DNA of 64,000 nucleotides, from NCBI RefSeq assembly GCF_013122565.1, contig NZ_CP053258.1; one strand, given 5' to 3'. Of this stretch, positions 25,117 through 37,580 are shown piece after piece. How positions within the stretch are numbered: position 1 is the stretch's first letter; the number at the start of each line of letters is the position of its first letter. This DNA comes from Escherichia coli (lineage in GTDB: Bacteria > Pseudomonadota > Gammaproteobacteria > Enterobacterales > Enterobacteriaceae). The notes below the pieces were generated by a model. That model worked only from the letters and a program-made list of their open reading frames with translations, did not search any database and was not told the origin of the DNA. Position numbers and translations under genes: made by a program.

Positions 25117-26412
25117 ATGACTCAACAACCATCGCGTACCGGCACGTTCGGCGCAATACTCCGTGTTACCAGCGGTAATTTTCTCGAACAGTTCGATTTT
25201 TTCCTGTTTGGTTTTTACGCTACTTATATCGCAAAGACGTTTTTTCCTGCCGAAAGTGAGTTTGCCGCATTAATGCTTACTTTTGCCGTTTTTGGCTCCG
25301 GCTTTTTAATGCGCCCTATCGGGGCCGTGGTATTGGGTGCATATATCGACAGAATTGGGCGACGGAAAGGGCTGATGGTTACCCTGGCGATTATGGGCTG
25401 CGGCACGATGCTCATCGCCCTCGTTCCGGGTTATCAGACTATCGGCCTGCTGGCCCCTGTACTGGTCCTGGTGGGGCGTCTGCTACAGGGATTTTCTGCT
25501 GGAGTCGAACTGGGCGGCGTCTCTGTTTATCTTTCTGAGATCGCCACACCAGGCAATAAAGGCTTTTATACCAGTTGGCAATCGGCCAGCCAGCAGGTGG
25601 CGATTGTGGTCGCCGCGCTGATCGGGTACGGTCTGAATGCCACGCTGGGACACGATGAAATCTCCGAATGGGGTTGGCGAATACCGTTCTTCATTGGCTG
25701 CATGATTATTCCGCTGATTTTTGTTCTGCGACGTTCGCTTCAGGAAACTGAAACCTTTTTACAGCGTAAACACCGTCCGGACACCCGGGAAATTTTTACC
25801 ACCATTGCTAAAAACTGGCGTATTATCACTGCGGGAACCCTGCTGGTGGCGATGACGACCACGACATTTTATTTTATTACCGTCTATACCCCCACTTACG
25901 GGAGAACGGTGTTGAACCTGAGCGCACGTGATAGTCTGATCGTCACTATGCTGGTAGGGATTTCTAACTTTATATGGCTGCCGATTGGCGGCGCGATCTC
26001 TGACCGGATTGGGCGTCTCCCGGTGCTAATGGGCATCACCTTACTCGCCATCGTCACCACCTGGCCGGTGATGCACTGGCTTACCGCTGCACCTGACGTC
26101 ACCCGCATGACACTGGTGCTGCTCTGGTTCTCGTTCTTTTTTGGGATGTATAACGGTGCAATGGTAGCAGCCCTGACAGAAGTGATGCCGGTTTATGTCC
26201 GAACCGTGGGTTTTTCGCTGGCCTTTAGTCTCGCCACGGCGATTTTCGGCGGCCTGACACCAGCCATCTCCACTGCATTGGTCCAGTTGACAGGCGATAA
26301 AAGTTCTCCTGGATGGTGGCTAATGTGCGCTGCGCTGTGCGGGCTCGCCGCGACGACAATACTGTTTGCTCGTCTCAGTAGTGGTTATCAGACAGTAAAA
26401 AATAAGCTCTGA
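25117..26412 (+). CDS. tcuC: Tricarballylate/citrate MFS transporter TcuC
   Basis: 431-aa MFS-type ORF downstream of tcuAB. Confidence 0.82.
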
Positions 26413-26418
26413 AACGCA

Positions 26419-26450
26419 AGCAGGCAGAGATATATGTCTGCCTGCTTTCT
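26419..26450 (+). terminator. Terminator-like hairpin after tcuC
   Basis: AGCAGGCAGA / TCTGCCTGCT 10-bp stem, 8-nt loop, followed by TTCT. Confidence 0.5.
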
Positions 26451-26639
26451 CCAGTGCGCCGTAAACCGTGGGCAGCGTGGCACGGGAGTTACGTCACCGG
26501 GCTCTATGCCAACAGTTCAGTGAGTTCGCCGGCGCATCGATGGCTGGTTATGCCAGCAATGTTCAGAGGGAAGAATATTCGTGTGATCATAGCTTGCTTA
26601 TTCCTTGCCTGGGTTAAATTTTCAGACGGCTCAATCCAT

Positions 26640-26892
26640 AAAACCGGTGACTGGGATTAACGTAAGTACGCCCTCTTTCCATCAACACTTCAGGCAGCTT
26701 GCGGGAATGAGTCCACTCCGGTATCAGAAATGACTATGCCTCAGAAGACAGGCGACTAACGATGTCACCACAGCAGCCTATACTGTCGGTTACGAAAGCT
26801 TATCCCATTTCAGTCGGGAATATTCGCGGATGTTTGGAGAGTCACCTAAGAGAGATATTGCCAGATTAAGAAAGTCTGTCGATCAGCTTTAA
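26640..26892 (+). pseudogene. yneL: Decayed AraC-family regulator remnant (yneL-like)
   Basis: Translation gives ...[77 protein letters not shown]. Both AraC-type HTH signatures are present, but an in-frame TGA interrupts them and the inter-helix spacing is shortened. No intact N-terminal domain. Confidence 0.55.
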
Positions 26893-27325
26893 TAAACCCT
26901 GCATTTATCTGGTTAGAGCAATTTGGCGTTAGTTTCAGCAAGCAAACATTAACCATAGCTAATGATTTTTAGCTATATAAACCATTAGTAACTCTTGACC
27001 TTTCCTGACACTTCCCTTGTTCGCAATAATATTCTGTTTAGTCGCTGTTTATAAATAACATGCATAATGAAATCGTCATGTTATTTAGCGACATAAAATG
27101 TCTTTGCAAATACTCTCTTCAATAAGTGCAGCAATAAACTTGTTGTGGATAGGTGTCCTTGTGATTTAAAGATATTATCGTTCTTCGTGAAATGTAATAA
27201 CCCTGGAAACTATATTCTCAGGGCAACAGCCAATCAAGAATGATTCTTGTTTTATAAGCAATAACAGAATGACTTAATTGTTAACTCTCTTTATTCAGCT
27301 ACTTAAATGTAAATTTTGGAGAATT

Positions 27326-27889
27326 ATGAAACTCAAACATGTCGGTATGATTGTCGTTTCTGTGTTGGCGATGTCGTCTGCTGCGGTAAGTGCAGCCGAG
27401 GGTGATGAATCAGTAACGACCACTGTTAATGGCGGTGTTATTCATTTTAAAGGTGAAGTGGTAAATGCCGCTTGTGCGATTGATTCAGAATCAATGAACC
27501 AAACGGTTGAACTGGGGCAGGTCCGTTCTTCTCGCCTGGCTAAAGCGGGTGACCTCAGCTCCGCCGTTGGCTTCAATATCAAGCTGAATGATTGTGATAC
27601 CAATGTTTCCAGTAATGCAGCTGTTGCATTCCTGGGTACTACTGTCACCAGTAATGACGATACGTTAGCGCTGCAGAGTTCAGCGGCAGGCTCTGCCCAA
27701 AATGTCGGTATCCAAATTTTGGACCGTACGGGGGAGGTATTAATACTTGATGGTGCCACTTTTAGCGCTAAAACTGACTTGATTGATGGCACGAATATAC
27801 TGCCGTTCCAGGCTCGTTATATTGCTCTCGGGCAGTCAGTAGCTGGTACTGCAAACGCAGATGCGACCTTCAAAGTTCAATATCTATAA
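27326..27889 (+). CDS. fmlA: F9 (Fml) fimbrial major subunit, FimA-like
   Basis: 187 aa from ATG 27326 with RBS GGAG at 27318-27321; signal peptide and pilin-like C-terminus. First gene of a chaperone-usher operon. Confidence 0.8.
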
Positions 27890-27930
27890 TTCTATCTTAA
27901 GGTGGCTATACGTCATCTGAAAATGAAACA

Positions 27931-27959
27931 GGGTGTGTGTGGCATGGCTACGCACACCC
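27931..27959 (+). other. Imperfect hairpin (GGGTGTG...CACACCC) in the intergenic region after the major-subunit gene
   Basis: Read directly. Its position resembles the intra-operon attenuating stem-loops of fimbrial operons; that role is inference. Confidence 0.3.
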
Positions 27960-28240
27960 GAGCAATTCACCAATGTGAATCTCATTATTAATGAGGAGTG
28001 GTTTGTATTTGGAGCGGTATGAAAAAATCACATAATATCTAAACGATTAATAAACAACAGTAGTTGAACTTACTGTTATTTAAAATATTTACTTAGTAGC
28101 AAGGTTTTCCTATTAAAAGAGAACCAACATTTGTTACAAACGCATTAAGTCTGGAAACCCGGCGACTCGCAATGTATTAGCAACATTTACCGATTGTCTG
28201 ATGTAACGGTTTCCCCGCTTATCCTCTTAACACATGGAGA

Positions 28241-28960
28241 ATGCATCAGATGCAAACTACGCGTACCCCCTACTCTGTTTCCGTTATGGCGACAGTGTTA
28301 CTTTTATTGCTCTTTGCTTGCCATAGCACCGTTGCCAACGCAGCTGTCGCACTTGGTGCGACGCGGGTAATTTATCCGGCAAACCAGAAACAGGTTTTAT
28401 TGCCTGTCACGAATAATGATCCTGCCAGTGTCTATCTCATTCAGTCATGGATAGAAAATGCGGGTGACCAAAAAGACACCCAGTTTGTCATTACCCCACC
28501 ACTTTTTTCCATGCAAGGTAAAAAAGAGAATACGCTGCGGATAATCAACGCCACTAATCATCAGTTACCAGACGACCGTGAAAGCCTGTTCTGGGTTAAT
28601 GTCAAAGCTATTCCTGCTATGGAAAAAGACCAGAAGAATGAGAATACATTACAGCTGGCAATTATTAGCCGCATAAAAATGTTTTATCGCCCCACGAACC
28701 TGGCAATGGCACCTGAAGAAGCGCCTGCAATGCTTCGGTTTCGCCGCAGCGGTAGCAAACTCACTCTTATAAATCCAACGCCCTACTTCATTACCGTAAC
28801 AAATATGAAAGCAGGAAATAGCAATCTCCCAAACACCATGGTGCCGCCAAAAGGTGAAGTATCGGTGGATATCCCGCATGCTGCAACCGGGGATATCAGT
28901 TTTCAAACGATCAATGATTACGGTGCATTAACTCCGCGTATTAAGGCAACCATGCAGTAA
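28241..28960 (+). CDS. Fimbrial periplasmic chaperone (FimC/PapD-like)
   Basis: 239-aa ORF with signal peptide and chaperone-like sequence (…RVIYPANQKQVLLPVTNNDPASVYLIQSWIEN...). Confidence 0.85.
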   Translation: MHQMQTTRTPYSVSVMATVLLLLLFACHSTVANAAVALGATRVIYPANQKQVLLPVTNNDPASVYLIQSWIENAGDQKDTQFVITPPLFSMQGKKENTLRIINATNHQLPDDRESLFWVNVKAIPAMEKDQKNENTLQLAIISRIKMFYRPTNLAMAPEEAPAMLRFRRSGSKLTLINPTPYFITVTNMKAGNSNLPNTMVPPKGEVSVDIPHAATGDISFQTINDYGALTPRIKATMQ

Positions 28961-29001
28961 GCCAGTAACCTAATTAATAATAAACTCAATCGGAATTAAT
29001 A

Positions 29002-31653
29002 ATGACAGCCTTTCGTGCCGCATTTAAGGCATATCGTATGCATCAGGTGTTACTACTGCCTCGCTTTGCACGGCTTACCATTGCCCTTGGCTTAGCAACT
29101 GCGGTATTTCCCGTTGACGCAGAGTATTATTTTAATCCACGGTTTTTAAGCAATGATCTTGCTGAATCTGTCGATTTATCCGCCTTTACTAAGGGACGCG
29201 AGGCACCACCTGGTACATATCGGGTCGACATTTATTTGAACGACGAATTTATGACCAGTCGGGATATTACTTTTATTACAGATGATAATAACGCAGCTCT
29301 CATCCCATGCCTGAGTACAGACCTTCTTGTCAGTCTTGGTATAAAAAAATCAGCGTTATTAGACAATAAGGGACATTCGGCAGAAAAACATGTGCCGGAC
29401 AACAGCGCATGCACACCACTTCAGGATCGTTTGGCTGACGCATCATCTGAGTTTGATGTTGGTCAGCAACATCTGTCACTCTCCGTTCCGCAAATTTATG
29501 TTGGCAGAATGGCTCGCGGCTATGTTTCTCCTGATCTGTGGGAAGAAGGAATAAATGCTGGGCTACTAAACTATAGTTTTAATGGTAATTCTATTAACAA
29601 TCGTAGTAACCATAATGCAGGAAAATCCAACTATGCATATTTGAATTTACAGAGTGGCATTAACATTGGTAGTTGGCGACTGCGCGATAACTCAACGTGG
29701 AGTTATAACAGTGGGAGTAGCAATTCATCTGACAGCAATAAATGGCAGCATATCAATACGTCGGCTGAACGTGACATTATTCCCTTACGCTCACGGTTAA
29801 CGGTGGGTGATAGTTATACCGATGGCGATATTTTTGATAGTGTGAACTTTCGTGGCCTCAAAATAAATTCAACAGAAGCAATGTTGCCCGATAGCCAACA
29901 TGGTTTCGCTCCGGTGATTCATGGTATTGCCCGTGGCACCGCACAAGTGAGTGTAAAACAGAACGGATACGATGTTTATCAGACTACTGTCCCACCCGGC
30001 CCTTTTACTATTGATGATATCAACTCTGCGGCCAATGGTGGTGATCTGCAAGTAACCATAAAAGAGGCAGACGGCAGTATTCAGACATTATATGTTCCTT
30101 ATTCGTCTGTTCCGGTTCTCCAACGTGCTGGATATACGCGTTATGCGCTTGCCATGGGGGAATATCGTAGTGGAAATGACCTGCAAAGCTCCCCCAAGTT
30201 CATACAAGGTAGCTTGATGCATGGACTGGAAGGAAACTGGACACCTTATGGCGGAATGCAAATTGCAGAAGATTATCAGGCCTTAAACCTTGGTATTGGT
30301 AAAGATTTAGGACTTTTTGGTGCCTTTTCTTTCGATATCACGCAGGCCAATACGACACTTGCAGATGGCACCCGTCACAGCGGGCAATCGGTTAAATCCG
30401 TCTACAGCAAATCCTTCTACCAGACGGGAACCAATATCCAGGTCGCAGGATATCGCTATTCTACGCAAGGTTTTTATAACTTATCCGACAGTGCCTACAG
30501 TCGAATGAGTGGTTACACCGTCAAGCCTCCTACCGGAGACAGCAATGAGCAGACACAATTTATTGATTATTTTAATCTGTTCTACAGTAAGCGTGGTCAG
30601 GAACAAATAAGCATCTCTCAGCAGCTTGGAAATTACGGTACGACATTTTTCAGTGCCAGTCGCCAAAGTTACTGGAACACGTCACGCAGCGACCAGCAAA
30701 TATCATTTGGGTTAAATGTGCCGTTTGGTGATATTACAACCTCGCTGAATTACAGCTATTCCAATAATATATGGCAAAACGATCGAGATCATTTACTCGC
30801 TTTTACGCTTAATATTCCCTTCAGTCATTGGATGCGTACAGACAGTCAGTCGGCATTTCGTAATTCAAACGCCAGTTACAGTATGTCAAACGATTTGAAA
30901 GGCGGCATGACCAATCTATCGGGGGTTTATGGCACTCTGCTGCCGGATAATAACCTGAATTATAGCGTTCAGGTCGGTAACACCCACGGGGGTAATACAT
31001 CGTCTGGCACCAGTGGTTACAGTTCTCTTAATTATCGTGGAGCTTACGGTAATACTAATGTCGGTTACAGTCGGAGTGGCGAAAGCAGCCAGATTTATTA
31101 TGGAATGAGTGGTGGCATTATTGCTCATGCTGATGGCATCACCTTTGGACAGCCGCTGGGCGACACAATGGTTCTGGTTAAGGCTCCTGGCGCTGATAAT
31201 GTCAAAATAGAGAACCAGACCGGAATTCATACTGACTGGCGTGGCTATGCCATATTACCATTTGCGACAGAATATAGAGAAAATCGTGTCGCTCTTAACG
31301 CGAATTCCCTGGCAGATAATGTTGAACTGGATGAAACCGTGGTCACTGTCATCCCAACTCACGGTGCTATTGCCAGAGCAACATTTAATGCACAAATCGG
31401 CGGGAAAGTATTAATGACGTTGAAGTACGGTAATAAGAGCGTTCCATTCGGTGCAATTGTCACTCACGGAGAGAATAAAAACGGCAGCATTGTCGCGGAA
31501 AACGGTCAGGTTTATCTGACTGGACTTCCACAGTCAGGGAAATTACAGGTTTCATGGGGCAAAGATAAAAACTCAAACTGTATTGTCGAGTACAAGCTTC
31601 CTGAAGTTTCTCCTGGTACCTTACTGAACCAGCAGACAGCAATCTGTCGCTAA
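29002..31653 (+). CDS. ydeT: Fimbrial outer-membrane usher (FimD-like), full length
   Basis: 883-aa ORF. In K-12, ydeT is only a C-terminal fragment; here it is intact. Confidence 0.85.
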   Translation: MTAFRAAFKAYRMHQVLLLPRFARLTIALGLATAVFPVDAEYYFNPRFLSNDLAESVDLSAFTKGREAPPGTYRVDIYLNDEFMTSRDITFITDDNNAALIPCLSTDLLVSLGIKKSALLDNKGHSAEKHVPDNSACTPLQDRLADASSEFDVGQQHLSLSVPQIYVGRMARGYVSPDLWEEGINAGLLNYSFNGNSINNRSNHNAGKSNYAYLNLQSGINIGSWRLRDNSTWSYNSGSSNSSDSNKWQHINTSAERDIIPLRSRLTVGDSYTDGDIFDSVNFRGLKINSTEAMLPDSQHGFAPVIHGIARGTAQVSVKQNGYDVYQTTVPPGPFTIDDINSAANGGDLQVTIKEADGSIQTLYVPYSSVPVLQRAGYTRYALAMGEYRSGNDLQSSPKFIQGSLMHGLEGNWTPYGGMQIAEDYQALNLGIGKDLGLFGAFSFDITQANTTLADGTRHSGQSVKSVYSKSFYQTGTNIQVAGYRYSTQGFYNLSDSAYSRMSGYTVKPPTGDSNEQTQFIDYFNLFYSKRGQEQISISQQLGNYGTTFFSASRQSYWNTSRSDQQISFGLNVPFGDITTSLNYSYSNNIWQNDRDHLLAFTLNIPFSHWMRTDSQSAFRNSNASYSMSNDLKGGMTNLSGVYGTLLPDNNLNYSVQVGNTHGGNTSSGTSGYSSLNYRGAYGNTNVGYSRSGESSQIYYGMSGGIIAHADGITFGQPLGDTMVLVKAPGADNVKIENQTGIHTDWRGYAILPFATEYRENRVALNANSLADNVELDETVVTVIPTHGAIARATFNAQIGGKVLMTLKYGNKSVPFGAIVTHGENKNGSIVAENGQVYLTGLPQSGKLQVSWGKDKNSNCIVEYKLPEVSPGTLLNQQTAICR

Positions 31654-31666
31654 GGAACAATAGATT

Positions 31667-32197
31667 ATGAAATACAATAACATTATTTTCCTCGGTTTAT
31701 GTCTGGGGTTAACCACCTATTCTGCTTTATCCGCAGATAGCGTTATTAAAATTAGCGGGCGCGTCCTCGATTATGGCTGCACAGTCTCATCGGATTCGCT
31801 TAATTTTACCGTAGATCTCCAAAAAAACAGTGCCAGACAATTTCCAACGACCGGTAGCACAAGTCCAGCCGTCCCTTTTCAGATTACGTTAAGTGAATGC
31901 AGCAAAGGGACAACGGGAGTTCGGGTTGCATTTAACGGTATTGAGGATGCAGAAAATAATACTCTGTTGAAACTGGATGAAGGGAGCAATACGGCCTCCG
32001 GTTTGGGTATAGAAATACTGGACGGAAATATGCGTCCGGTGAAATTGAATGACCTTCATGCCGGGATGCAGTGGATCCCACTGGTACCAGAACAGAACAA
32101 TGTTTTGCCTTACTCCGCTCGTTTGAAGTCAACTCAGAAGTCCGTCAATCCGGGACTGGTGAGCGCTTCGGCAACATTTACCCTTGAATTTCAATGA
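31667..32197 (+). CDS. ydeS: Fimbrial minor subunit YdeS
   Basis: 176-aa pilin-like ORF with signal peptide. Confidence 0.85.
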   Translation: MKYNNIIFLGLCLGLTTYSALSADSVIKISGRVLDYGCTVSSDSLNFTVDLQKNSARQFPTTGSTSPAVPFQITLSECSKGTTGVRVAFNGIEDAENNTLLKLDEGSNTASGLGIEILDGNMRPVKLNDLHAGMQWIPLVPEQNNVLPYSARLKSTQKSVNPGLVSASATFTLEFQ

Positions 32198-32209
32198 TCA
32201 GAGTCAGAT

Positions 32210-32713
32210 ATGAAAAGACTTCACAAGAGGTTCCTGTTAGCTACGTTTTGCGCGTTATTCACAGCAACTCTCCAGGCCGCCGATGTCACTATCACTGTTA
32301 ATGGTCGGGTAGTCGCTAAACCCTGCACTATTCAAACCAAAGAAGCTAACGTTAATCTCGGGGATCTTTATACACGCAATCTGCAACAACCTGGTTCTGC
32401 ATCAGGCTGGCACAATATTACTTTGTCATTAACCGATTGTCCGGTTGAAACAAGTGCAGTGACGGCAATCGTGACAGGTTCAACTGACAATACGGGTTAT
32501 TACAAAAATGAAGGTACTGCCGAAAATATTCAGATAGAGCTAAGGGATGACCAGGATGCGACGTTAAAAAATGGCGATAGCAAAACGGTTATTGTTGATG
32601 AGATCACTCGTAATGCACAGTTTCCACTTAAGGCAAGAGCTATCACGGTGAATGGAAACGCAAGCCAGGGAACGATCGAGGCGCTAATCAATGTGATCTA
32701 CACTTGGCAATAA
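32210..32713 (+). CDS. ydeR: Fimbrial minor subunit YdeR
   Basis: 167-aa pilin-like ORF with signal peptide. Confidence 0.85.
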   Translation: MKRLHKRFLLATFCALFTATLQAADVTITVNGRVVAKPCTIQTKEANVNLGDLYTRNLQQPGSASGWHNITLSLTDCPVETSAVTAIVTGSTDNTGYYKNEGTAENIQIELRDDQDATLKNGDSKTVIVDEITRNAQFPLKARAITVNGNASQGTIEALINVIYTWQ

Positions 32714-32772
32714 CGTCGATTCGATTTTCTTAGCCTCCTTTTTAAATCAATTTTTTAACCTTAGGATATATC

Positions 32773-33687
32773 ATGGGTAAAACAATAAGTATGAAGGTTC
32801 TGTTCGGTATTTATCTTCTATTAATAGCAGGCAAAGTTTTTGCCTTCAGTTGTAATGTCGATGGCGGGTCAAGTATTGGAGCAGGTACAACCTCTGTTTA
32901 TGTTAATCTCGACCCTGTAATACAACCGGGCCAGAATCTGGTTGTAGACTTGTCTCAGCATATAAGTTGCTGGAATGATTACGGCGGCTGGTACGACACT
33001 GATCATATAAACCTGGTACAAGGCTCAGCTTTCGCAGGCTCCCTACAGTCATATAAAGGATCGCTGTACTGGAATAATGTGACCTACCCCTTCCCGTTGA
33101 CAACAAATACCAACGTATTGGATATTGGTGATAAGACACCGATGCCATTACCGTTAAAACTCTATATTACTCCAGTCGGGGCGGCCGGCGGAGTTGTCAT
33201 AAACGCGGGGGAAGTTATTGCCCGTATTCATATGTATAAAATTGCAACATTAGGAAGCGGAAATCCGCGTAATTTTACGTGGAATATTATTTCAAATAAC
33301 AGTGTTGTTATGCCAACAGGCGGCTGCACCGTTGATAGTCGTAATGTCAACGTGAATCTCCCGGACTTTCCTGGAAGCGCAGAAATACCCCTTGGCGTAT
33401 ATTGCTCAAGTGAACAAAAGCTCTCATTTTATCTTTCGGGTGCTACCACTGACAGTGCCAGACAAGTGTTTGCTAACACAGCACCAGATGCAACAAAAGC
33501 AGCGGGAGTGGGTGTCTCTCTGATGCGTAATGGAAAAATACTGGCTACGGGAGAAAATGTCTCCCTGGGGACAGTAAATAAAAGCAAAGTACCTCTGGGT
33601 TTAAGCGCAACCTATGGACAAACAGGAAACAAAGTTTCAGCCGGAACCGTCCAGTCAGTCATTGGTGTCACTTTTATCTATGAATAA
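32773..33687 (+). CDS. ydeQ: Fimbrial tip adhesin YdeQ (FimH/FmlH-like two-domain adhesin)
   Basis: 304-aa ORF, last gene of the operon; adhesin-like length and signal peptide. Confidence 0.85.
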
Positions 33688-33759
33688 TTGTGATTTTGAC
33701 CTTAGTCTATGCGCTCCATTCACGAAAATTGCGCGGATAATTATTTTGTGAAGGCTATT

Positions 33760-33777
33760 ATCCTACACCTGTAAGAA
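33760..33777. promoter_or_regulatory. EvgA-box-like inverted repeat (ATCCTACA-CC-TGTAAGAA) upstream of ydeP
   Basis: Matches the TTCYTACA-N2-TGTARGAA EvgA consensus; ydeP is a known direct EvgA target. Confidence 0.65.
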
Positions 33778-34020
33778 AATCCGCGCACAATTGAAGCCAG
33801 AGTCTTATTTTTTATATTGAAAAACATGTTAATTTAAACACTATGAGAGATGATGCTTAATTTATCGTGTTTAATCTTTTGTTTAACGATAATAGATTAA
33901 AAATAGAAAGAGAGTAGTCCCCTACTCTTATATATCCATGTTGACGATAATCCCTTTGTATATACTGTGCATCATCGCTATTACAAATCCTAATAATTCA
34001 TTTCCACACAGGATAAGCAG

Positions 34021-36300
34021 ATGAAGAAAAAAATTGAATCCTACCAGGGAGCTGCCGGTGGTTGGGGTGCTGTTAAATCCGTAGCGAATGCAGTACGTAA
34101 GCAGATGGATATACGCCAGGATGTTATTGCCATGTTTGACATGAATAAGCCAGAGGGCTTTGACTGTCCGGGTTGTGCATGGCCAGATCCTAAGCACAGT
34201 GCGTCATTCGACATTTGTGAAAACGGCGCAAAAGCAATCGCCTGGGAAGTCACGGATAAGCAGGTAAACGCCTCTTTCTTTGCTGAGAATACGGTTCAAT
34301 CATTACTTACCTGGGGAGACCACGAGCTTGAGGCTGCGGGGCGACTCACTCAGCCTTTGAAATATGATGCCGTCAGCGACTGTTACAAGCCATTAAGCTG
34401 GCAACAAGCTTTCGATGAAATTGGCGCACGCCTTCAAAGCTATAGTGATCCCAATCAGGTTGAATTCTATACTTCGGGCCGCACTTCCAATGAAGCTGCC
34501 TTTCTTTATCAGCTTTTTGCCCGTGAATACGGGAGCAATAACTTTCCCGACTGCTCCAACATGTGCCATGAACCGACCAGTGTGGGTTTGGCAGCGAGTA
34601 TCGGTGTGGGTAAAGGGACCGTGTTGCTGGAAGACTTTGAGAAATGCGATTTAGTCATTTGCATTGGGCATAACCCTGGTACAAACCACCCTCGCATGTT
34701 GACTTCGTTGCGCGCTTTAGTGAAACGGGGAGCGAAAATGATCGCCATCAATCCTCTACAGGAACGTGGTCTGGAGCGATTTACCGCACCGCAAAACCCG
34801 TTTGAAATGCTGACGAACTCTGAGACTCAGTTGGCCAGTGCCTACTATAACGTGCGCATTGGTGGCGATATGGCGTTGCTCAAGGGGATGATGCGCCTGT
34901 TAATTGAGCGCGATGATGCTGCAAGCGCCGCAGGTCGGCCCTCATTGCTGGATGACGAATTTATTCAAACGCATACCGTCGGCTTTGACGAGCTACGCCG
35001 TGACGTTCTCAATTCCGAGTGGAAAGATATCGAACGTATTTCTGGACTAAGTCAGACTCAAATCGCCGAACTGGCTGATGCATATGCCGCTGCCGAACGC
35101 ACCATTATCTGTTACGGAATGGGGATCACTCAGCACGAACATGGTACCCAGAATGTACAGCAACTGGTCAATCTGCTGTTGATGAAAGGTAACATTGGCA
35201 AGCCTGGTGCGGGTATCTGCCCACTACGAGGTCACTCTAATGTACAGGGCGACCGAACCGTCGGTATCACCGAGAAACCGTCTGCAGAGTTTCTGGCTCG
35301 CCTGGGTGAGCGCTATGGTTTCACCCCACCTCATGCACCTGGACATGCTGCAATTGCCAGCATGCAAGCGATATGTACGGGGCAGGCTCGAGCATTGATC
35401 TGCATGGGGGGCAACTTTGCACTGGCAATGCCAGATCGGGAAGCGAGCGCTGTACCGTTAACGCAATTAGATTTGGCGGTACACGTAGCCACTAAGCTTA
35501 ACCGCTCTCATCTGCTGACCGCACAGCATAGCTATATTCTGCCGGTTCTTGGGCGTAGCGAGATTGACATGCAAAAAAGCGGTGCGCAGGCGGTAACCGT
35601 TGAGGATTCAATGTCGATGATTCATGCCTCGCGTGGCGTGTTAAAACCCGCCGGTGTAATGCTGAAATCAGAGTGTGCAGTGGTCGCGGGTATCGCGCAG
35701 GCGGCACTACCCCAGAGCGTGGTAGCCTGGGAGTATCTGGTGGAAGATTATGATCGCATTCGCAATGACATTGAAGCTGTGCTGCCAGAGTTCGCCGACT
35801 ATAACCAGCGCATCCGACATCCTGGAGGTTTTCACCTGATAAACGCAGCTGCTGAAAGGCGCTGGATGACGTCGTCAGGTAAGGCTAATTTCATTACCAG
35901 TAAAGGGCTGTTAGAAGATCCCTCTTCAGCGTTTAACAGTAAGCTAGTCATGGCGACAGTACGCAGTCACGATCAGTACAACACGACGATTTATGGTATG
36001 GATGATCGCTATCGAGGGGTATTCGGTCAACGAGATGTGGTCTTTATGAGTGCTAAACAAGCTAAAATTTGCCGTGTAAAAAACGGCGAAAGAGTTAATC
36101 TTATTGCGCTTACGCCAGACGGTAAGCGAAGCTCACGCCGCATGGATAGATTAAAAGTGGTCATTTACCCTATGGCTGACCGCTCACTGGTGACCTATTT
36201 TCCAGAATCGAATCACATGCTAACACTTGATAACCACGATCCATTAAGTGGCATTCCAGGCTATAAAAGTATTCCGGTTGAATTAGAACCATCAAATTAA
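34021..36300 (+). CDS. ydeP: YdeP, molybdopterin oxidoreductase-family acid-resistance protein
   Basis: 759-aa ORF; sequence and length match K-12 YdeP. Confidence 0.93.
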
Positions 36301-36418
36301 TGCCTCTTCTCATTTCTTCTGCTGTCATCCGCACAGCAGAAGAATTCCTCATTGACTATTATCGCGCAATTTGCTCACATGGATTAAATTAAACCACATC
36401 CTATAAGATATAAACTTC

Positions 36419-36436
36419 TGCCTACAGCTGTAAGAA
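36419..36436. promoter_or_regulatory. EvgA-box-like element (TGCCTACA-GC-TGTAAGAA) upstream of safA-ydeO
   Basis: Shares an extended ~40-bp module with the ydeP upstream site (CCTACA-N-CTGTAAGAAA-N-TCCGC...TGAAG). Confidence 0.6.
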
Positions 36437-36547
36437 ACTCCGCTCAGTACTGAAGTGTCAGTCCTATTTCCTCTTTTCTCCAGCCTGTTATATTAAGCAT
36501 ACTGATTAACGATTTTTAACGTTATCCGCTAAATTAACATATTTGAA

Positions 36548-36745
36548 ATGCATGCGACCACAGTGAAAAACAAAATCACGCAACGAGACAACTATAAAGA
36601 GATCATGTCTGTAATTGTGGTTGTCTTATTACTGACTCTTACATTGATAGCCATTTTTTCGGCAATTGATCAGCTGGGTATTTCAGAAATGGGTCGCATT
36701 GCAAGAGATCTTACACATTTCATTATCAATAGTTTGCAAGACTGA
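36548..36745 (+). CDS. safA: SafA (B1500), small membrane connector between EvgS/EvgA and PhoQ/PhoP
   Basis: 65-aa ORF (MHATTVKNKITQRDNYKEIMSVIVVVLLLTLTLIAIF...) with a single transmembrane segment. Confidence 0.88.
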   Translation: MHATTVKNKITQRDNYKEIMSVIVVVLLLTLTLIAIFSAIDQLGISEMGRIARDLTHFIINSLQD

Positions 36746-36818
36746 AAATAAACAGCAAATTATAAATGTGAAATGTTTAAAAGGTATCGATAAAACTTTA
36801 TTGTTTTAAGGAGATAAA

Positions 36819-37580
36819 ATGTCGCTCGTTTGTTCTGTTATATTTATTCATCATGCCTTCAACGCTAACATTTTAGATAAAGATTACGCCTTCTCTGATG
36901 GCGAGATCCTGATGGTAGATAACGCTGTTCGTACGCATTTTGAACCTTATGAGCGGCATTTCAAAGAAATAGGATTTAATGAAAATACCATTAAAAAATA
37001 TCTACAATGCACTAACATCCAGACAGTGACGATGCCTGTTCCTGCGAAGTTTTTACGTGCTTCAAATGTACCGACTGGATTGCTTAATGAAATGATTGCT
37101 TATCTCAACTCGGAAGAACGCAATCATCATAACTTTTCAGAACTTTTGCTTTTTTCTTGCCTGTCTATTTTTGCCACATGCAAAGGTTTCATTACACTAT
37201 TAACTAACGGTGTGCTATCCGTTTCCGGGAAAGTGAGAAATATTGTCAACATGAAGCTGGCGCACCCATGGAAGCTGAAAGATATTTGTGACTGCCTGTA
37301 CATTAGTGAAAGCCTGTTGAAGAAAAAACTAAAGCAAGAGCAAACGACATTCTCACAGATTCTTTTAGATGCCAGAATGCAGCACGCAAAAAATTTGATA
37401 CGCGTAGAAGGTTCAGTCAATAAAATTGCCGAACAATGTGGTTATGCGAGTACATCTTATTTTATTTATGCGTTCCGCAAACATTTCGGCAACAGTCCAA
37501 AGAGAGTTTCTAAGGAGTACCGTTGTCAAAGGCACACGGGTAGGAATACGGGCAACACGATGAATGCTTTAGCTATTTGA
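36819..37580 (+). CDS. ydeO: YdeO, AraC-family acid-resistance regulator
   Basis: 253-aa ORF with C-terminal AraC HTH (...IAEQCGYASTSYFIYAFRKHFGNSPKR...). Confidence 0.92.
   Translation: MSLVCSVIFIHHAFNANILDKDYAFSDGEILMVDNAVRTHFEPYERHFKEIGFNENTIKKYLQCTNIQTVTMPVPAKFLRASNVPTGLLNEMIAYLNSEERNHHNFSELLLFSCLSIFATCKGFITLLTNGVLSVSGKVRNIVNMKLAHPWKLKDICDCLYISESLLKKKLKQEQTTFSQILLDARMQHAKNLIRVEGSVNKIAEQCGYASTSYFIYAFRKHFGNSPKRVSKEYRCQRHTGRNTGNTMNALAI

Follow-up and report, generated by a model that had tools for sequence, protein, structure and literature searches.

The stretch of E. coli DNA analysed here (the window, 64 kb in length) carries the genes ydeQ, ydeP, safA and ydeO, all on the plus strand, in a region that is 97-99% identical to E. 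coli chromosomes and for which the gene names are those of the RefSeq annotation. From the open reading frames and the annotation of matching genomes, the ydeP coding sequence spans 34021-36300, safA, which encodes 65 amino acids, spans 36548-36745, and ydeO spans 36819-37580. A stable hairpin is predicted on the plus strand 3' of the ydeP stop codon, at 36314-36344 (fold energy -17.6 kcal/mol, z = -4.6, with 0 of 200 shuffled sequences as stable). It consists of 12 base pairs with one bulged base, TTCTTCTGCTGT...ACAGCAGAAGAA, followed by a weak U-tract. This is probably the ydeP terminator, and its location 3' of the stop codon fits an organization in which ydeP and safA-ydeO are separate transcription units. 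No Rfam match at E <= 1 was found in 33600-37000, a region that includes the leaders of both units.

Each of the two transcription units is preceded by an EvgA box. Masuda and Church in 2003 and Itou et al. in 2009 are said to have recognized an 18-bp inverted repeat, TTCYTACA-N2-TGTARGAA, upstream of ydeP, safA/b1500, emrK, yfdX, frc and yegR. The box of the ydeP promoter, ATCCTACACCTGTAAGAA, lies at 33760-33777 and that of the safA-ydeO promoter, TGCCTACAGCTGTAAGAA, at 36419-36436. Each has one mismatch to TTCYTACANNTGTARGAA, and these are the only two matches to that sequence at up to three mismatches in the 64 kb. Both genes are established as EvgA-activated targets (PMC11210196; PMC9496106; 2026 bioRxiv preprint), and direct binding of EvgA to the safA-ydeO promoter has been documented (review, PMC9496106). 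In the EvgA acid-resistance cascade, ydeP and safA-ydeO stand at the top, and safA connects EvgS/EvgA with PhoQ/PhoP. Both promoters and their 18-bp boxes are already characterised members of the EvgA regulon, so the extended unit described below is an incremental gain and a modest refinement.

Two copies of one promoter unit

We found that the ydeP and safA-ydeO promoters represent a single kind of promoter unit, some 100 bases long, that is present twice and reaches beyond the two EvgA sites. The initial annotation had pointed to similar CCTACA...TCCGC...TGAAG strings upstream of safA and ydeP that continued well past the 18-bp EvgA core, and both strings are there. The safA copy, CCTACAGCTGTAAGAAACTCCGC, occupies 36421-36443 with TGAAG at 36451-36455, and the ydeP copy, CCTACACCTGTAAGAAAATCCGC, occupies 33762-33784 with TGAAG at 33792-33796. 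A degenerate 23-mer, CCTACANCTGTAAGAAANTCCGC, matches only at 33762 and 36421 in the 64-kb window, with 0.00 matches expected from 100 shuffles. The two promoters align without gaps at an offset of 2,659, from 33762/36421 to about 33865/36524, giving some 104 nt with 65% identity. Over the 160 nt 5' of the boxes, identity is at a background level of 15-35%; it rises to 80% exactly at the left box edge and then runs at 50-80% over about 100 nt. The left edge of the module is thus sharp and coincides with the box, and the right edge fades gradually, at about +22 of the transcript. The likeness is not confined to the EvgA half-sites, with 60-65% identity for about 86 nt beyond the core and no gaps. 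The repeat of about 40 bp proposed in the initial annotation is therefore real and was sized too small: it forms the upstream third of a roughly 104-bp unit that reaches from the box to about +22. At the two promoters we found neither flanking repeats that could be attributed to a duplication nor a mobile element.

Of the 86 positions that follow the 18-bp core, 52 are identical in the two promoters, where composition predicts 27% (binomial P = 1.2e-10). In a comparison with all 128,000 positions of the window, both strands included, the ydeP and safA segments are each other's best match; the runners-up score 46 against ydeP and 40 against safA. With a +1/-1 scheme, local alignment of the sequences after the box recovered positions 3-83 as one ungapped block (z = 7.2), a score that none of 1000 shuffles reached. 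This scheme and the in-register count are suitable tests for dispersed matches at around 60% identity. Because the matches are dispersed, the pair had no significance under a stringent +2/-3 local alignment; it was also not listed by a repeat search over 33600-36600. The repeat search did return several inverted short matches between the two promoter regions, which are not collinear and which we took to be chance matches of AT-rich DNA. A chance resemblance of two AT-rich intergenic regions around a common 18-bp site could draw on their low G+C content (33% and 37%), but it is refuted by the binomial probability, the mutual top match and the shuffles, and we regard it as hardly credible.

The unit has a consistent internal order. 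The EvgA box is followed by TCCGC(G/T)CA at 3-10 nt after the box, TGAAG at 15-19 nt and AGTC(T/C)TATTT at 24-33 nt, and then by an extended -10 element (TGnTAnnTT), the start-site region and about 22 nt of leader. The published ydeP leader is 178 nt long, counted from the ATG at 34021 (PMC11210196), which places the ydeP start site at 33843 and the EvgA box at -83 to -66, centred at -74.5. In-register identity defines a spacer block in ydeP, TCCGCGCA...TTGAAG, at 33780-33796 (-63 to -47) and its counterpart in safA, TCCGCTCA...CTGAAG, at 36439-36455. The first 8 nt of the ydeP block form a weak left-type EvgA half-site, at the top position of a half-site matrix described below. Identity and the same matrix also mark AGTCTTATTT at 33801-33810 in ydeP and AGTCCTATTT at 36460-36469 in safA, the latter with TCCTA at 36462-36466. 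In ydeP, the corresponding TCTTA at 33803-33807 (-40 to -36) is a candidate EvgA half-site core that overlaps a weak -35, in an element whose distance from the primary left half-site is 42 bp. Both promoters have a poor -35 region (ATTTTT and ATTTCC), as expected for an activator-dependent promoter. The ydeP extended -10, TGTTAATTT, lies at 33827-33835, with TG at -16/-15 and TAATTT at -13 to -8, a placement that fits the 178-nt leader. The predicted safA extended -10, TGTTATATT, combines TG with TATATT at 36486-36494. The two elements are 2,659 apart, like the boxes, so the spacing from box to -10 is conserved exactly.

Similarity continues past the start site. The ydeP start at 33843 and the leader from +1 to +23 (33843-33865) are safA-like over about 22 nt, with around 55% in-register identity. 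By register, the safA start would be A 36501 or C 36502, opening a ydeP-like leader segment at 36501-36524. The leader sequence GATGCTTAAC is identical in ydeP and several safA alleles, and the safA copy of the window reads GATTTTTAAC. A consensus promoter scan had proposed a different ydeP promoter, TTGAAG-16-TATATT at 33791-33818. We rejected it since the published leader leads to a start 18 nt further downstream, and since the hexamer that it takes as the -10 reads TCTTTT in safA and TTTATT in L006, a divergent lineage introduced below.

Two small features near the start sites may be recorded here. The A at the ydeP start, 33843, begins an ATG and with it a 5-codon frame (33843-33860), ATG AGA GAT GAT GCT TAA (MRDDA), which would be a leaderless mini-ORF. 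A conserved peptide is unlikely, since O157:H7 and a second lineage have lost the stop (TAA to TAC) and safA reads CTG in place of the ATG. On the minus strand just 5' of the safA start codon, at 36530-36544, we observed AAATATGTTAATTTA, which matches the ydeP -10 region at 14 of 15 positions in the window and at 15 of 15 in K-12. It could be a divergent antisense -10-like element, or a chance match.

We compared these two promoters with the K-12 emrK/evgA, frc, yfdX and yegR regions, aligned on the EvgA box and oriented toward the gene. Counted in register across the 86 nt that follow the box, ydeP and safA are 60% identical, and every other pair in the regulon is 19-43% identical; ydeP or safA against the emrK, yegR, frc, yfdX and evgA regions gives 21-43%. 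Local-alignment z scores follow the same division, ydeP/safA reaching 7.2 and the remaining pairs staying at or below 3.3, which indicates that the extra similarity is specific to ydeP and safA. Both copies thus carry the 18-bp box, with one mismatch, upstream of documented EvgA targets, as other promoters of the regulon do, but in these two alone the likeness carries on for about 86 nt more, taking in the -10 and the start site. A few of the positions shared by the pair are not peculiar to it and belong to the EvgA regulon as a whole. The suggestion of a duplicated regulatory unit is supported by the lower in-register identity of the other EvgA promoter regions, although common ancestry is something we infer rather than regard as proven. 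In searchable full-text literature we found no description of this extended paralogy, though the primary promoter papers may mention one.

Variation and distribution of the unit

The variation of the two promoters was assessed in nine lineages: the window, K-12, five diverse E. coli, one contaminated metagenome-assembled genome and the divergent L006, whose YdeP is 95% identical. A further 51 instances came from a metagenome scan, for a total of 16 distinct ydeP-type and 20 distinct safA-type variants. Across these 36 variants, 19 of the 68 positions shared between the paralogues are polymorphic versus 22 of the 36 unshared positions (Fisher P = 0.0015), and the effect persists (P = 0.026) when the part fixed by the search pattern is set aside. 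The lower variability of the shared positions suggests that the retained similarity marks constrained, presumably functional positions. The roughly 50 conserved positions outside the 18-bp box are candidates for promoter function. TGAAG is invariant in 36 of 36 variants, the safA extended -10 is invariant except for the base between TG and the hexamer, and spacing is essentially fixed, with an indel in 1 of 37 variants. Where positions are polymorphic, the ydeP and safA consensuses are nevertheless identical at 19 of 41 versus 27% expected (P = 0.006); outside the pattern-constrained region the count is 11 of 27 (P = 0.09). Identity above chance at positions that vary is predicted by common ancestry and not by pure convergence.

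In L006, conservation stands at 78-88% from the box through about +25, and the DNA directly 5' of each box is largely unalignable with that of E. coli. The left edge of the conserved module in this lineage (3700-3740 and 6350-6390) coincides with the left box edge. At L006 safA, about 16 nt 5' of the box (TAAGATATA...) are also kept.

Of 5,426 complete E. coli genomes, approximately 5,300-5,400 carry each module, once per genome. For the metagenome scan, a pattern of 17 bases was drawn from the pair-specific block; it gave at least 120 matching stretches, of which 80 loci were examined. Among the matches listed for these 80 loci, 26 were of ydeP type, 25 of safA type and 43 unrelated and without an EvgA box, the last number being about the chance expectation for a pattern of that size. 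No third copy or context was found in the window, in the E. coli genomes or among the metagenome matches listed. One candidate in the window, a 46/86 match at 60697, was rejected because it falls within a coding sequence and lacks an EvgA box. A dispersed repeat or mobile element of REP or MITE type was likewise dismissed: each module occupies one place per genome, and no third context appeared among the matches listed.

Outside Escherichia, the nearest relatives of ydeP are in Edwardsiella (85% amino-acid identity) and Yersinia rohdei (67%). Their ydeP upstream regions contain no EvgA box and show no homology to the E. coli upstream DNA, and a scan of a genome collection found no ydeP in other named Escherichia species. 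SafA and EvgS/EvgA are limited to E. coli and Shigella (review, PMC9496106). Relatives that lack the box, together with this confinement of SafA, EvgS and EvgA, indicate that the EvgA-dependent ydeP promoter is an acquisition of the Escherichia lineage. YdeP of E. coli is 85% identical to that of Edwardsiella anguillarum, E. piscicida and E. hoshinae and 56-67% identical to homologues in Yersinia rohdei, Raoultella and Tatumella, and the G+C content of the coding sequence in the comparison of E. coli with Edwardsiella is 50% against 60-65%. This pattern of identity and the difference in G+C suggest that ydeP has been transferred horizontally between these lineages.

The region is rearranged in some genomes. 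IS1203, IS600 or IS1 is inserted in the ydeP-safA-ydeO stretch of some E. coli strains, and one strain has ydeO listed twice. On plasmid pKFu015_2 (NZ_CP147132.1, 92.6 kb), at 25818-33878, ydeP lies between two Tn3-like IS3000 transposase genes. The captured segment corresponds to about 33815-36469 of the window; it begins inside the ydeP promoter, with the -10 kept and the EvgA box gone, and ends just past the safA EvgA box. This looks like a composite transposon by which an acid-resistance gene has been mobilised out of EvgA control. A ydeP-safA region encoding a YdeP 100% identical to that of the window is also found on JARKOR010000108.1, a contig of a 'Candidatus Nanosynbacter' metagenome-assembled genome, and this is almost certainly an E. 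coli contig that was binned wrongly.

A proposed duplication and competing explanations

We favor a reading, to which we give a probability of about 60%, in which a complete EvgA-dependent sigma-70 promoter unit of about 104 bp is present twice through an old duplication and has been kept alike by purifying selection. One copy drives ydeP and the second, in the same orientation 2,659 bp away, drives safA-ydeO. At each, phosphorylated EvgA binds the high-affinity 18-bp inverted repeat centred near -74.5, as the literature has established for both promoters, and would recruit RNA polymerase to a core promoter that is weak by itself, such that both operons switch on together at mildly acidic pH. 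Both copies would descend from one ancestral promoter that was duplicated within the Escherichia lineage, their similarity being upheld by purifying selection on a common function and not by ongoing gene conversion. On weaker grounds, EvgA may also make low-affinity contacts with the conserved half-site-like elements, helically phased at 20 and 42 bp beyond the primary left half-site, so that its occupancy would reach as far as the -35 region. Duplication is favored because other EvgA promoter regions are so much less alike and because polymorphic positions, too, are identical more often than chance predicts. Were both promoters copies of a single full unit, alike in spacing, -10 and spacer blocks, their joint response would be explained. 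They would also be a concrete case of a regulon recruiting a gene by copying a whole promoter, as opposed to a binding site evolving in place; that the nearest relatives of ydeP, in Edwardsiella, are without any EvgA box bears on such recruitment. As in other locally duplicated cis-regulatory modules, the copies are collinear and gap-free, lie 2.66 kb apart in the same orientation and serve co-regulated neighboring operons. They differ from such cases in that only the promoter is doubled, the ydeP and safA genes being unrelated, and in that no scar is left.

The main competitor is convergence without common ancestry, in which two promoters of separate origin came to need the same geometry for EvgA, RNA polymerase and perhaps a further shared regulator. 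Such convergence would account for the coincidence between shared positions and those conserved among variants, and for the recurrence of C9 A10, T26 C27, T31 and the box-to-(-10) distance in emrK, yegR, frc and yfdX. The two promoters also have regulation in common, since both are under YdeO-dependent negative feedback, safA being repressed by PhoP as well (for safA, 2026 bioRxiv preprint). Against it, the other promoters with the same activator and a similar geometry fall far short of the ydeP/safA likeness, which spans more than 80 nt with no indel. The excess identity at polymorphic positions and the continuation of identity into the transcribed leader also speak for descent. We consider convergence rather improbable, although ancestry and convergence under common constraints cannot be separated cleanly by comparisons of this kind because the shared positions are the constrained ones. 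Ongoing gene conversion between nearby direct repeats would be facilitated by the distance of 2.66 kb and the direct orientation, and a parallel T-to-C change between TG and the -10 hexamer in both L006 promoters is what it could produce. However, the identity of ydeP to safA is 0.57-0.64 both within one genome and between genomes, on which basis we rejected it. About 35% of positions are fixed differences, and one co-located change is within chance expectation, making gene conversion very unlikely indeed.

The pair-specific sequence TCCGC.CA...TGAAG...ATTTY may alternatively be an operator for a second regulator of these two promoters, for example a factor in YdeO feedback. This would be compatible with duplication and would give the spacer another function. 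TGAAG, invariant here, is absent from other EvgA promoters, and the safA copy of the window, TGAAGT-N9-ATTTCC, is similar to the YdeO box as published, in which ATTTCA is repeated in inverted orientation across a spacer of 9-21 nt; negative feedback by YdeO has moreover been reported for both promoters. However, the seven sites named by YdeO ChIP-chip include neither ydeP nor safA, the repression of ydeP by YdeO is described as indirect (PMC11210196), and the match to the YdeO box is 10/12 in the window safA and only 8/12 in ydeP. With neither promoter among the ChIP-chip sites and so poor a match in ydeP, the idea of a YdeO operator is weak, and we judge a second-regulator operator of any kind unlikely.

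Possible phased half-sites across the EvgA regulon

We also assessed which positions are common to the regulon as a whole. When six EvgA promoters (ydeP, safA, emrK, yegR, frc and the proximal yfdX box) were aligned on the box, C9, A10, T26, C27 and T31 were invariant in the region after it, 5 columns versus 0.5 expected (P = 2e-4, with the paralogous pair shuffled jointly). All six promoters have in common TCY.AT at +26-31 after the box and CA at +9/10. Candidate -10 hexamers could be read by eye at 53-59 after the box in 6/6, in stretches that are AT-rich and, for yegR, ambiguous in placement. A half-site matrix built from 14 primary half-sites and summed across promoters gave left-type peaks at +3 and +25 after the box, with P = 0.015 for the maximum, at the top position, and the second peak beyond 95% of the null. 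Measured from the primary left half-site, these peaks lie 20 and 42 bp downstream and share one helical face with it, the second occupying -41 to -34. The secondary half-sites score near zero bits, and no right-type half-sites were found after the box with this matrix in the six promoters.

EvgA is the E. coli homologue of Bordetella BvgA, and the two have similar half-site cores (TTCCTA). At BvgA promoters, head-to-head dimers follow one another at 22-bp intervals between a strong distal site and one that adjoins the -35, and both Pfha and Pptx have one strong upstream inverted repeat with weaker sites every 22 bp toward the -35 (PMC7250471). The EvgA promoters are reminiscent of this arrangement, with a strong distal site and weak conserved half-site-like elements 20 and 42 bp downstream, the last abutting the -35. 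In contrast to BvgA, the candidate EvgA elements are left-type only and have scores near zero, and the strong EvgA site has an 8-2-8 layout with its TTC ends outward, whereas BvgA heptads abut. The invariant columns hint at phased weak EvgA half-sites as in BvgA promoters. Given the near-zero scores and the lack of right-type half-sites, we treat a BvgA-like arrangement as a lead and not a result, one with which the alignment is compatible.

A broader reading, which we put forward tentatively, is that all EvgA promoters follow one fixed-register plan. The box would sit at about -74.5 with weak left-type half-sites 20 and 42 bp further on, phosphorylated EvgA would oligomerise toward RNA polymerase in a BvgA-like manner, and the regulon would have grown in part by the copying of promoter cassettes. 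Suggestive instances of cassette copying, if this reading holds, are the 104-bp pair at ydeP and safA, a 38-bp tandem unit at yfdX and a -10/start motif common to ydeP and yegR. The last of these is a match between ydeP 33832-33849 and the K-12 yegR promoter at 60-76 nt after the box, with ATTTAAACACTA(T)GAGAG around the -10 and start site in both. It consists of an exact 12-mer plus 5 more bases, is shifted by 5 bp relative to the box (z = 4.3 under stringent scoring) and may be a further trace of common promoter ancestry. The yfdX unit, a related case of duplication in the same regulon, contains the EvgA box and varies by strain, with 2 copies in K-12 (locus 14501-14556) and 3 in NCTC11129 (locus 163-256), a copy-number polymorphism of an activator site within the EvgA regulon.
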